A DNA stretch of 38,370 nucleotides from a virus (IMGVR_UViG_2645727901_000003:1-38370), one strand, 5' to 3'; shown: positions 14,087-35,440, counted from the first letter of the stretch. The notes: generated by a model from the letters alone, not told the origin. Made by a program: numbers and translations.

Positions 14087-14098
14087 GTGACATGTCAC
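14087..14098. repeat. Palindrome GTGACATGTCAC, copy 1
   Basis: 12-bp perfect palindrome overlapping the TGA stop of the 14095..14391 gene. Confidence 0.6.
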
Positions 14099-14391
14099 GC
14101 TCTTTTCCTGAAGGATAGCCATTCGAAGAACGAAGACATCCCCCCGCACGCAATAGCAAAAACCAGGCCGCCAAAGAAAAGAAGCCCTGCCTGCCACCAT
14201 TCCCAACGCCATACGTCGACAGCGCCAACCATTCCAACAATGGAACCGACCAAAGGGATATAACTAACGATGAAAGCAATGGGTGCGGCCACTATCCAGT
14301 GCAGTCCCCACCACGATTCAAGACCAGCCATGATCGCAGCCAACTGAAAAAGACCAACAACTATGTAAACAATGAAACCAATAGCTTGCAT
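14095..14391 (-). CDS. Small inner-membrane protein (moron)
   Basis: 98 aa, three hydrophobic helices; ATG with AGGTGA Shine-Dalgarno. Confidence 0.55.
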   Translation of the reverse strand: MQAIGFIVYIVVGLFQLAAIMAGLESWWGLHWIVAAPIAFIVSYIPLVGSIVGMVGAVDVWRWEWWQAGLLFFGGLVFAIACGGMSSFFEWLSFRKRA

Positions 14392-14399
14392 GTGGTCAC

Positions 14400-14771
14400 C
14401 TATTTATTTTTAATCTTCTCATCCATGGCAAATTTTGTGGCTAATCTCTCACCATCAGATTTTAGCCTTTCTGTAAATTGCCGCTTACCATCTTGCGAAG
14501 AGTTTAAATAATATATATTCGACTCGGCGATCATTGGTATATATGACTCGCATGACACAACCGAAGCTTTTGATATGGAATCAACACTTTCTCCTGTCTT
14601 GGCATACTTTACAGCCTGCCCTTTTATGCATCCAAAGTATTCCATTGTATGCTTTTTAGAATCCTCCAATGTTTCTCCATTTTTAGGCTGAATCATTAAA
14701 GGTGATGTAGTATCAGCAGAAGCTTTTCCAACAAAAAAAATAAGAAGAGTCATTAATATAATTCTGTTCAT
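14400..14771 (-). CDS. Secreted/periplasmic protein (moron)
   Basis: 123 aa; signal peptide MNRIILMTLLIFFVGKASA; AT-rich. Confidence 0.5.
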   Translation of the reverse strand: MNRIILMTLLIFFVGKASADTTSPLMIQPKNGETLEDSKKHTMEYFGCIKGQAVKYAKTGESVDSISKASVVSCESYIPMIAESNIYYLNSSQDGKRQFTERLKSDGERLATKFAMDEKIKNK

Positions 14772-14772
14772 A

Positions 14773-17319
14773 TTACTTCCCTAGCATGAACTGCGATGGT
14801 GGGATCAGAAAGTCGTTACCCTGCTCCCGTTCAACACGGCGCTGATAGCGCTCCAGTGATCCAGGGTCAAGAGCATCCTGTATACGGTTCAATATTAAAC
14901 CATTCATTGCTGTGCGCAGCCAGAACACGTTAAGGAAAGGCGTATTGTCCAGCGCGGTGCGATACCAGTCACCCAGGTCTGCATCGCCGCGCGTTGTCTG
15001 CTGGAACAGCGTGATAATGCTATCAGCGTTCGACGCGGCTGGCCCCATCAATGATGTCACTGGACCAGCACCCATGCGATTGACTTCGCCAAACATGAAG
15101 TCGCCCAAGATGCCTAGGCCGCCGCCCTGAGATGCGGCTGCGAGGAATGTCTTGGCATCTGCCGGACGCGGCGTCTGCCCCTTAAGCAATAGTTTCGACT
15201 GCATAGAGATATAGCCAAACATGGTTGCCCAGACGAACAGGTTTGCCGCCCCCAAGAATGCACCTTTTCCGTTACGCAGCAGCGCATTCGTCAGCGATCC
15301 TGTTTTTGATTCACCCAGGCCAGCGGGAGTATAACCGCGCCCGAATACCTCACGTCCAAGCACGTTCTGCATGAAACTCGCAGTGAACGATTTGTACTGA
15401 CCAGCGAAACGTATTGCCTCCCCAGCTACTGTTCCTGGTACAGTGCCCATCTTCATAAACGCCTGCGTACGATCTCCCGGCTCTGACATAGCGATGTTTA
15501 GTCGGTCAAGAATATACCCACGAAGTTGGCTTTCCAGCGTGTCTCTCGCATCGGCAATAGATCGCTCGGTGACCTTCATGCCTTTTCCTTCAACATATGA
15601 GGCTATCACCTCATCCGGAACGCCACGAATTCCGCTGGTCGTCATGAATTTGCGGCCTTCGCTGTCTGCCATGTCCATGCTGCGGTAGATATTCCATTCA
15701 GCGTCACCTATGCCGTGCAGGTCCAGAACGCGGCGCAGGTCCTCCGGCAGTGCAGAAAATTGCTGATCGGCGTTCTTCGCCAGCCAGTTTGTTATCATCA
15801 TGGCGTTGCTGTTACGCCCGGATTCTGTCCAGAAGTTCATAAGGTTGTATTTGAAGAATAGCTGCTGCGCACGCCCCATCTTGCCGCTCATGCTGTCGTC
15901 GCCAGACATGCGACGGATGATTTCCTGCGTCATCGTGTCGGAGTAAACGCCGATAGATGAAAGGATCTCCTTCTGCTCATCACTGGTGTAGCGGGAAAAG
16001 CGCCCCTTCATCGCGCCGGTCAGCGCCTGCATGAAGTTCTGGCCCTGATACCGCATTTCTGTCGCCGAGATTGGCACGTCGTTAAAAGATGAAATGACCG
16101 CTCCTCCAAGCTGACTCATACGCAGCCAGCCGCGCACGTTGGCTGAGGCATTAGCCCAGCCAACACTGCCGGGGATATTCAGCGATCCATCAACCTGTGG
16201 CATAACCGTGCGATTCAGGCGGCGCACCTTGGTCATGAAATCAGCCAGCGCCGAAGGGTTGCTCTGCTTGCTCACGTCTTTTGCGATGGTGTCTGTCAGG
16301 TACTTGAACATGTTCTGCGGGTTGGTACCAAGCACGCGCATCATGCCCGTAGTGCGCGCCGCGCTGTTCAGTCCGCCGAATACTGCCTCACGCAGGCTGC
16401 CAGTTCCGAATTGCTCGTTGTATTCGTGCCAGTTAACACCGTCTTTGAAGTGCAACACCCGCTCCTGGCTGGCTCGTTTGGCCGCATTCGCCGATCCCTT
16501 AAAGCCATTCATCCAGTCTGGTTTTTCAGAGGTAAGGTGCACACCGGAGGCAAGGCCGTCGTAGACACCACGCAGGAACCCTTCTCGGTCTGTGATCCCG
16601 TCAAAGGTGGCATCATCCAGCCGCGGCAGAATGGTATTGCGCCAGGATTCATACCCGGCGGCACGGATTTTCAGTATGTCATGCGACTGCCGGACGATGT
16701 AGCCAGGCATCTTACCAATCCAGGCACCAGCACGGTTTTCATCCACGCGCGCAGTTTCCTGCCACTTCATGATGATCTTAGCGGCACTGACTGATTGCGG
16801 CGTCATACCGTCCGTTTTCTGTCCGCGGCCAATGCGCCACATGGCGTCGGCTATCTCGCGGTCATTGCTGCCACTGGCAATAAATTTAACCAGTCCTGCC
16901 TGGTCGAAATCATAGTTGATACCAGCATGATACTTACCGCGCAGTTGGGCAACCTCAGAGGATACCGAGCGGCGGGAACCAGTGCGCGCGTCATTACGTC
17001 CGACAAGAATAGCCTCCAGACCGATGTCAGGACGGTCTTTCCAAGTCCGGCGAAGCTCGCCAAGGCGCTGAGCTGCAATACGGGTATTAATGGCCTTATT
17101 CCGTGCCTCAATGACTTTAGCCAGTTGCTCGCGATTACCAAGCTCCTGCGCGGCGCGCATCGCTGCTTCTTCCAGCGTCAGTGCTTCATTACCAGCCAGT
17201 ATCCGGTTTGTGGTGTCGTTCATGTCACGCACCAAAGATTCCATTTCGTCATCAGACAGCTTGCGCCCGGCAGCTGCATTGACGGTCATTTCGCATTGCG
17301 TAAGAAATTCGTTAGCCAT
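14773..17319 (-). CDS. Internal virion / ejection protein (large)
   Basis: 848 aa, position between internal-protein genes and morons. Confidence 0.5.
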   Translation of the reverse strand: MANEFLTQCEMTVNAAAGRKLSDDEMESLVRDMNDTTNRILAGNEALTLEEAAMRAAQELGNREQLAKVIEARNKAINTRIAAQRLGELRRTWKDRPDIGLEAILVGRNDARTGSRRSVSSEVAQLRGKYHAGINYDFDQAGLVKFIASGSNDREIADAMWRIGRGQKTDGMTPQSVSAAKIIMKWQETARVDENRAGAWIGKMPGYIVRQSHDILKIRAAGYESWRNTILPRLDDATFDGITDREGFLRGVYDGLASGVHLTSEKPDWMNGFKGSANAAKRASQERVLHFKDGVNWHEYNEQFGTGSLREAVFGGLNSAARTTGMMRVLGTNPQNMFKYLTDTIAKDVSKQSNPSALADFMTKVRRLNRTVMPQVDGSLNIPGSVGWANASANVRGWLRMSQLGGAVISSFNDVPISATEMRYQGQNFMQALTGAMKGRFSRYTSDEQKEILSSIGVYSDTMTQEIIRRMSGDDSMSGKMGRAQQLFFKYNLMNFWTESGRNSNAMMITNWLAKNADQQFSALPEDLRRVLDLHGIGDAEWNIYRSMDMADSEGRKFMTTSGIRGVPDEVIASYVEGKGMKVTERSIADARDTLESQLRGYILDRLNIAMSEPGDRTQAFMKMGTVPGTVAGEAIRFAGQYKSFTASFMQNVLGREVFGRGYTPAGLGESKTGSLTNALLRNGKGAFLGAANLFVWATMFGYISMQSKLLLKGQTPRPADAKTFLAAASQGGGLGILGDFMFGEVNRMGAGPVTSLMGPAASNADSIITLFQQTTRGDADLGDWYRTALDNTPFLNVFWLRTAMNGLILNRIQDALDPGSLERYQRRVEREQGNDFLIPPSQFMLGK

Positions 17320-35098: not shown

Positions 35099-35103
35099 CT
35101 TTG

Positions 35104-35361
35104 CTAAATAAGTTTAAATTCATCGTCAAATGCCTGACCGTTATTAACCATTCCATCATGCACAACGCTGTAGTGCATACAATCGCGGAGAGACATTGGT
35201 TTTTCAAACTCAAGCCAGAAACAATCAACATAAGCCTTACCCAACCAGAATCCTCCGCCATACTCTTTTGCTCGTTGTATTATCAGCCAGCTACCATCTG
35301 GTACGCTTTCGATAAACTCACCCCGATAGATGATCGTGCAATTTGGATTTTTTGACCCCAT
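35104..35361 (-). CDS. Small protein under a LexA box (SOS-inducible; candidate antirepressor or other SOS effector)
   Basis: 85 aa; ATG with GGTGA Shine-Dalgarno; LexA box 18-37 bp upstream; own terminator. Confidence 0.5.
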   Translation of the reverse strand: MGSKNPNCTIIYRGEFIESVPDGSWLIIQRAKEYGGGFWLGKAYVDCFWLEFEKPMSLRDCMHYSVVHDGMVNNGQAFDDEFKLI

Positions 35362-35378
35362 GTTATTTCACCGAAAAT

Positions 35379-35398
35379 TACTGTATAAATACACAGTA
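35379..35398. promoter_or_regulatory. LexA (SOS) box TACTGTATAAATACACAGTA
   Basis: Perfect CTGT-N8-ACAG with TA flanks and AT-rich spacer; TTGACG -35-like hexamer upstream on the minus strand. Confidence 0.7.
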
Positions 35399-35428
35399 CA
35401 ATTGCAATGAAATTCCGTCAACATCTAC

Positions 35429-35440
35429 GTGACATGTCAC
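35429..35440. repeat. Palindrome GTGACATGTCAC, copy 3
   Basis: Overlaps the TGA stop of the 35437..35775 gene in the same register as copy 1. Confidence 0.6.

Follow-up and report, generated by a model that had tools for sequence, protein, structure and literature searches.

A 12-bp palindrome at three gene ends

We analyzed a 38,370-nucleotide stretch of viral DNA (IMGVR_UViG_2645727901_000003:1-38370; hereafter the window) in which a 12-bp palindrome, GTGACATGTCAC, recurs at the ends of genes. The window is a prophage of the epsilon15-like (Uetakevirus) type, whose structural genes lie on the minus strand. The palindrome has exactly three perfect copies, at 14087-14098 (copy 1), 32606-32617 (copy 2) and 35429-35440 (copy 3), and with its flanks copy 2 extends to 14 bp (TGTGACATGTCACA). 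A uniform model predicts 0.002 matches (38370/4^12), and 100 dinucleotide-preserving shuffles of the window produced no exact match. Both results bear out an earlier note on this DNA, which had listed the three copies, the extension of copy 2 and the same expectation. The general form of the palindrome is GTGAC-NN-GTCAC.

Each copy occupies a defined place in the gene map. Copy 1 (class C) covers the TGA stop of the last tail-operon gene, a membrane-like open reading frame (ORF) of 98 amino acids at 14095-14391 on the minus strand (phrog_3075). Copy 3 (class A) covers the TGA stop of a gene of the epsilon15 gp49/N15 gp46 family (phrog_536), located at 35437-35775 on the minus strand and encoding a putative binding protein of 112 amino acids from Met8; the ORF itself extends to 35796. 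In both copies the TGA is the in-register stop of the minus-strand ORF (14095-14391 and 35437-35796), just as the earlier note had described. Copy 2 (class B) lies between the stop of an antisense accessory ('cargo') gene on the plus strand (32170-32601, 143 amino acids, phrog_18493) and that gene's terminator. The hairpin terminators that had been noted beside copies 1 and 2 are present as well: one at 14066-14085 on the minus strand (AAGGCCGCCGAAGCGGCCTT + AATTTTTT), 1 nucleotide from copy 1, closes the tail operon, and one at 32622-32647 on the plus strand (hairpin 32622-32641 plus TTTTTG), 4 nucleotides from copy 2, serves the accessory gene. Copy 3 has no adjoining terminator, and there is none between the gp49-family gene and the small terminase gene in the window.

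Two weaker resemblances lie elsewhere in the window. A half-site, CATGTCAC, is present at 7861-7868 with its TGA serving as the Rz stop, as had been reported, within a 10/12 match (ATGCCATGTCAC, 7857-7868) that we judge not significant. Outside the three palindromes, the 8-mer has two extra copies in the window against 1.6 expected, and the 10/12 match at the Rz stop recurs in epsilon15 only, being absent at Rz in phiV10, Tyrion, PAT1 and TL-2011b. On these counts and comparisons the Rz half-site does not stand out against what chance and shared ancestry would give. The general motif may have a fourth, weak member, GTGACGGGTCAC at 11930-11941, within the tailspike gene.

Conservation of the sites in epsilon15-like phages

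Epsilon15 itself carries the same 12-mer three times, at three equivalent places. One copy is on the stop of gp49, the last early-right gene, directly before the small terminase gene; one lies 27 bp past the large terminase gene, with the antisense gene gp50 on one side and the gp50 terminator on the other; and one covers the gp18 stop, where the tail operon ends, immediately before a terminator. The identical 12-mer occurs at matching junctions in PAT1, phiV10, Tyrion and TL-2011b, and all five phages have equivalents of the tail-operon site with its terminator, preceded by small genes that vary from relative to relative. We then turned to 63 related viral loci from IMG/VR, retrieved through the protein encoded at 35437-35775. 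About 57 of the 63 have a perfect palindrome on the gp49-family stop, as do epsilon15, PAT1, TL-2011b and SPC32H. Most of the 63 have a second copy past the large terminase gene, where an island of hairpin plus palindrome is conserved in 44 related loci. The earlier note had proposed counting the motif in the window and in related phages; beyond the three copies in the window, GTGAC-NN-GTCAC has 116 matches in the 1.12 Mb of the 63 loci against 1.07 expected, 109 of them with the centre AT.

At its junctions the 12-mer is the most conserved stretch of all. By pairwise comparison, the 12-mer has an identity of 0.99, against 0.80 for the gp49 coding sequence beside it and about 0.5 for the sequence that follows downstream, and the change from conserved to variable sequence is abrupt. 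What follows the gp49 copy on its 3' side differs between phages: a terminator and a repressor operator, a LexA-controlled small ORF or umuD-like gene, other terminators, or short ORFs. Read along the direction of the gene, the order in epsilon15-type phages is gene stop, palindrome, intrinsic terminator, and 57 of 132 epsilon15-type sites (43%) lie no more than 8 nucleotides from a terminator, compared with 3.9% of random positions. At the slot past the large terminase gene, at least eight unrelated antisense cargo genes (phrog_18493 in the window being one) all stop 4-5 nucleotides from the palindrome.

In the window the palindromes are also ordered relative to a second repeated element, the epsilon15-type repressor operator ATTACC-N5-GGTAAT. 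This operator has 4 matches where 0.02 would be expected, at 35046-35062, 31291-31307, 12864-12880 and 12481-12497; they lie upstream of the small terminase, gp3-like and tailspike genes. In the direction of late transcription, each repressor operator is preceded by one palindrome, with accessory genes in between. Each window palindrome forms the upstream edge of an accessory-gene island whose downstream edge is an epsilon15-type repressor operator.

Linkage to one gene family across six lineages

The association with the gp49/gp46 family extends well beyond epsilon15-like phages, site and protein occurring together in many temperate phages. Six phage lineages, in which the protein is 37-93% identical, have a motif copy that overlaps or closely follows the stop of the family gene, and several of these genomes carry two or three copies. 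In N15 and 49 N15-like loci, GTGACTGGTCAC lies on the stop of gene 46, in register, and most of these loci have one or two more copies, inside repA and upstream of the antirepressor operon. Aeromonas P2-like loci have GTGACCGGTCAC or GTGTCCGGTCAC, located in about half of the cases at the stop or beyond it, with more copies downstream, and P0150-like loci have TGTGACGCGTCACA 2 nucleotides past the stop. A Yersinia P2-like phage has GTGACGCGTCAC on the stop of its homolog, upstream of a LexA-controlled tum gene. Vibrio phage K233 has three copies (GTGACGCGTCAC and GTGACACGTCAC), two of them 19 nucleotides upstream of start codons, including that of the small terminase gene. The Yersinia and Vibrio K233 sites were predicted from the hypothesis before these genomes were inspected, and then found. 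Phage lambda, which has no family homolog, has no copy of the motif. Across about 2.5 Mb of related loci, nearly all matches to the motif fall at a few homologous positions.

The two central bases vary in a structured manner. The centre dinucleotide is mostly clade-specific (AT, TG, CG, or GC/AC) and is the same at nearly all sites within a genome, except that both GC and AC occur in the single Vibrio genome. The residues predicted to face DNA from the beta-strand of the family protein also differ by clade, reading K-E-Q, R-D-V, E-R-K and R-E-K. A census of 5-N2-5 palindromes in N15 returned two families with at least three copies, the SopB sites and GTGAC-NN-GTCAC. Since the census recovers the known SopB sites, such counts are able to recover a known protein-binding site. 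Among N15-type sites, 0 of 105 have an adjoining terminator.

Some copies stand in other surroundings. The N15 copy at 28550-28561 is about 24 nucleotides upstream of a promoter-like site (TTGACG-N18-TAGAGT) that precedes a terminator and the antirepressor operon (genes 32-30), so that here too the motif neighbors an antirepressor control region. In mosaic lambdoid relatives (1809 in locus L047, with equivalents in L031, L060 and L061), a perfect copy lies inside a conserved ORF of 107 amino acids (phrog_2479) beside a cI-like repressor gene; there it reads as the codons T-C-D-M-S, and its synonymous positions are conserved between diverged loci. A query with P0214 found no viral loci, and the homolog in phiO18P is a partial, unannotated match that makes a poor test case.

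The gp49/gp46 protein

The window protein consists of a basic N-terminal helix, a ribbon-helix-helix (RHH) domain, a long helix and a Cys-rich C-terminal domain. Its AlphaFold model (predicted local distance difference test score, pLDDT, 87) matches RHH DNA binders and displays the beta-alpha-alpha arrangement of that fold. A single-sequence structure prediction reached a pLDDT of only 52, too low to be useful, and a Foldseek search against viral structure models returned just a fragment of a homolog. By profile hidden Markov models, residues 48-111 weakly match TraR and YbiI, with the pattern CxxCG..P....C.

No Pfam or NCBIfam model exists for the family, and its PHROGs entry, phrog_536, is labelled 'transcriptional regulator'. 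The family is small: in a set of 1.8 billion proteins it accounts for about 153 clusters at the 50% identity level. It occurs in at least 152 deposited phage genomes from Salmonella, E. coli, Klebsiella, Yersinia, Vibrio and Aeromonas. In SPC32H, the homolog (locus L156, 38179-38632) has lost its N-terminal 34 residues, comprising the basic helix and the start of the beta-strand, with palindrome and terminator intact. This truncation of the SPC32H/SPN1S type apparently arose by recombination with a different upstream gene. Since SPC32H is nevertheless a viable laboratory phage, lytic growth probably does not require the protein, which may have a subtle role.

A candidate operator and its possible function

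Of the roles that the earlier note had offered for the palindrome, a binding site for a phage regulator is the one that we favor, since the motif co-occurs and co-varies with one RHH family in six lineages. We consider it probable, from comparative sequence and the modeled fold, that GTGACATGTCAC is the operator, that is the predicted docking site, of the RHH protein encoded at 35437-35775 on the minus strand. The analysis shows the motif and how well it is conserved, that it is linked to the gene family and co-varies with it, and that an RHH fold is predicted; from these we infer physical binding and, as its effect, road-block, insulation, self-regulation or terminator control. The regulator-operator pair is apparently real and undescribed.

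In the proposed arrangement, one RHH dimer would occupy each 12-bp dyad. Its nearly invariant basic N-terminal helix (R8, R13) would read the invariant GTGAC arms, and its beta-ribbon would read the centre dinucleotide. Made as the last product of the early-right operon, the protein would bind three operon ends: its own, that of the antisense accessory gene beside the terminase genes, and that of the tail operon. Bound there, it would most likely act as a boundary or road-block element which, together with the abutting intrinsic terminators, may keep transcription of the core operons and of the accessory islands from running into each other. The placement of the sites at three 3' ends, against terminators and at the edges of accessory islands, fits such a role. 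Because one site lies on the protein's own stop codon, binding would also limit its own mRNA.

Several observations weigh against this operator and road-block interpretation. Copy 3 in the window adjoins a promoter instead of a terminator, a few loci (L060, L061) have no site at the gene end, and SPC32H is viable with a truncated homolog while its palindrome persists. The association was sampled from the gene side only, the loci having been retrieved via the protein, and the concerted centres could be due in part to common descent of the sites rather than to specificity. Moreover, terminator adjacency is absent in N15-like phages (the 0 of 105 sites given above), so that the road-block and terminator part is not general and the palindrome is not an intrinsic part of terminators. 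For the same reason, the termination or processing signal that had also been suggested keeps only its adjacency (43% against 4% of random positions, in epsilon15-type phages).

A more far-reaching possibility, which we regard as unlikely, is that gp49/gp46 is a new kind of DNA-tethered RNA-polymerase factor, with an RHH domain on 'matS-minus-one' dyads and a DksA/TraR-like zinc module that would set termination or read-through site by site, or else a mobile relative or mimic of MatP that would fold or bridge phage DNA. If either were true, the GTGAC half-site would be a code shared by a phage regulator and the host's chromosome-organizing system.

Alternative explanations

A related model treats the palindrome as a loading site, from which the protein would pass to the arriving RNA polymerase via its putative DksA/TraR-like zinc domain and alter termination at the next hairpin. 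Such site-specific antitermination or enhanced termination would resemble lambda Q or RfaH/ops in function. Class B and C palindromes lie 0-8 nucleotides ahead of a terminator, as read along the gene that it terminates, the epsilon15 class A palindrome is about 22 nucleotides upstream of one, the gene occupies a Q-like position as the last early gene just ahead of the small terminase gene, and residues 48-111 have their weak match to TraR and YbiI. However, no N15-type site adjoins a terminator, the window lacks a terminator between the gene and the small terminase gene, and N15 has a Q-like activator of its own, gene 40. Taken together with the viability of SPC32H despite its N-terminally truncated homolog, this makes an essential late-gene switch improbable, and we hold the loading model to be quite unlikely. 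Alternatively, the palindrome might act as RNA, forming a hairpin (GUGA-CAUG-UCAC) at mRNA 3' ends or by ribosome-binding sites, where it would affect stability, processing or translation of the next gene. Sites at stop codons, just ahead of terminators and 13-19 nucleotides upstream of start codons (N15 and Vibrio K233) would suit this, and the two single arm changes seen in classes A and B are both C-to-T, which is compatible with G-U pairing in the plus-strand reading. At the post-terminase site, however, the transcript is antisense, and C-to-T is not G-U compatible there. The stem would have 4 bp at most, the loop is self-complementary in most clades, as a DNA dyad needs and a hairpin does not, and in GTGTCCGGTCAC, a variant common in Aeromonas, the pairing is lost with no compensating change. 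Some sites, such as that in N15 repA, are inside coding regions on either strand, and the fold of the linked protein is one that binds double-stranded DNA. An RNA role is thus disfavored, and we consider it very unlikely.

The palindrome could also be a passive recombination joint, the 12-mer and its flanks serving as shared microhomology for module exchange without a trans-acting factor. The edges of the sites are suggestive in this respect: at the gp49 end, sequences diverge from the first base past the palindrome, the eight or more cargo genes end within 4-5 nucleotides of the post-terminase copy, different genes precede the tail-operon copy, and several unrelated ORFs stop at the palindrome's TGA. 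Yet 12 bases offer very little length for homologous exchange, conservation of the motif exceeds that of the neighboring coding sequence (0.99 against 0.80), and in a mosaic genome any functional island that is conserved would be expected to lie at a boundary. Identical arms around centres that are mostly specific to a clade are also found in unrelated types of phage, and within genes, which points to sequence-specific recognition. A joint of this kind thus seems very improbable to us. The earlier suggestion of a module-boundary or recombination sequence survives in its first half, each copy being an island of 0.99 identity at an abrupt conserved-to-variable junction, and nothing that we found marks the copies as recombination sites. 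Finally, a host protein, chiefly MatP, might bind the sites, which would tie prophage or phage DNA to Ter-macrodomain or divisome biology. The half-sites are identical to those of matS (GTGACRNYGTCAC), and the hosts of the family (Enterobacterales, Vibrio, Aeromonas) fall within what we take to be the MatP-bearing group. Against this, the sites tied to the family gene are 12 bp long and not 13, and a host protein accounts neither for the tight linkage to one phage gene nor for the clade-specific centres. Prophages are also reported to avoid true matS, with 0 found in 500 (PMC3603311). Host MatP as the binding protein is, in our judgment, a most improbable solution.

Simpler identities were considered and rejected. 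A promoter with GTGACA as its -35 element is contradicted by the gp49-end junction, whose variants share no consistent -10, and a promoter scan found none at copies 1 and 2. The epsilon15 prophage-repressor operator is a different motif, the ATTACC-N5-GGTAAT that is present separately in the window. The consensus of CRP sites is TGTGA-N6-TCACA; copy 2 reads TGTGA-N4-TCACA, with a spacing two bases short, and the flanking T and A are absent in the other copies. Other host regulator sites known to us do not fit in spacing or sequence, and none explains the linkage to a phage gene. An intrinsic terminator is excluded by a stem of at most 4 bp and the lack of a T run, the terminators being separate, adjacent elements. 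The N15 partition centromere differs from the phage motif in the sequence of its SopB inverted repeats (GTGCGACCNNGGTCGCAC).

Comparison with known systems

Among the closest known counterparts of the site is E. coli matS (GTGACRNYGTCAC). Its GTGAC/GTCAC arms are identical to those of the phage site, which has 12 bp in place of 13; both systems use few dispersed sites per replicon, and MatP too binds DNA through an RHH domain. By contrast, the phage family lacks the four-helix-bundle domain of MatP and has a putative zinc domain in place of the C-terminal coiled coil. The MatP models PF06303 and PF17414, present in all MatP matches, do not match the window protein and are not among the 25 families most matched by 66 family members at E values up to 10, and hhalign against E. 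coli MatP gave a probability of 0.4%. Only the 12-bp form occurs in the window, epsilon15 and PAT1, where the 13-bp matS form is absent. The arms being identical, the site one base shorter and MatP domains undetected in these searches, we treat the resemblance to matS as a lead and not as membership. Isolated 13-bp GTGAC-N3-GTCAC strings do occur in Aeromonas loci, the ones that fit the matS consensus lying within coding sequence. Such a string, GTGACACCGTCAC, is found in 5 of 152 loci (L120, L122, L127, L139, L146) about 380 bp upstream of the homolog, in each case at one homologous position inside an ASCH-like gene, where it is probably a coding coincidence (G-D-T-V-T).

With the RHH repressors (P22 Arc, Mnt, MetJ, CopG, AmrZ and the RHH antitoxins), the phage pair shares the predicted fold and a short dyad associated with the gene. 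It differs from them in the additional Cys-rich C-terminal domain and in sites that are dispersed at operon 3' ends, one on the gene's own stop, rather than clustered over one promoter; at the sequence level, the family matches no Pfam RHH family. The lambda Q/qut system offers a parallel in gene position, as the phage gene likewise closes the early-right operon, with the packaging genes coming directly after it, and its site lies just past the gene, followed by a terminator in epsilon15. Unlike lambda Q, however, the family coexists with a separate Q-like gene in N15 and tolerates truncation in SPC32H. The window protein has no Q domain, no consistent promoter surrounds the sites, and a terminator follows in some lineages only. 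A weak alignment to TraR and YbiI of the DksA/TraR C4 zinc-finger factors covers the C-terminal 60 residues and includes CxxCG..(I/L)P and a distal Cys. The SopB repeats of the N15 centromere, IR1-4 (PMC7205306), are dispersed short palindromes in N15 as well, but with a distinct motif and distinct positions.

Epsilon15-like phages, N15 and their relatives are well-studied models, yet the motif is missing from the epsilon15 record, which is richly annotated with repressor operators, IHF sites, RNase III sites and terminators. A search of open-access text found none of the 12-mers in a phage context; subscription titles, the original genome papers on epsilon15 and N15 among them, lie outside that text. 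If the operator assignment is correct, it would provide a cognate DNA site, and hence a testable function, for a family labelled 'hypothetical protein' or generically 'transcriptional regulator'. The motif would in addition mark the exact edges of slots for accessory genes, among them antirepressors, SOS-controlled genes and O-antigen modification genes. The identity of its half-site with that of matS raises the question of shared ancestry between the host Ter organizer and the phage regulator, or of mutual interference.

Genes and signals around the sites

Downstream of copy 3, after 7 nucleotides, begins a minus-strand promoter (TTGACG-N17-TACTGT) with a LexA box, TACTGTATAAATACACAGTA, the two together spanning 35379-35421. 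The near-consensus LexA box at 35379-35398 overlaps the -10 element. This promoter drives an ORF of 85 amino acids at 35104-35361 (phrog_2100), located between the gp49-like gene and the small terminase gene. The ORF looks like an SOS-controlled accessory gene and is possibly an antirepressor; it has no relative among solved structures and could not be equated with the SPC32H antirepressor. In three related loci (L023, L036, L046), a umuD-like ORF (MGFPSP...) with its own LexA box and a promoter reading TTGACT-N17-TACTGT lies about 6 nucleotides past the palindrome at the gp49 stop.

The slot at 32122-32960, which separates the large terminase gene from the portal module, is a hot spot with equivalents in loci L003-L065. 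In PAT1 (L001, 23824-26274), L013, L017 and L023, the large terminase gene is about 325 codons longer, and the distance from the gp49 copy to the post-terminase palindrome is about 3.2-3.6 kb instead of about 2.2 kb, which suggests an insertion, intein-like or of another kind. Also on the plus strand, an ORF of 93 amino acids at 32689-32970 has a hydrophobic C-terminal helix and a weak match to Hol_Tox (E 0.0025). It has an extended -10-like sequence, TGGCATAAT, upstream, and is convergent with the large terminase gene, overlapping its last codons. A BRO-N/antirepressor-like gene at 13140-13838 on the plus strand (Pfam Bro-N, E 2e-20) is convergent with the tail operon; the accessory island that contains it has copy 1 at one edge and the repressor operators at the other.

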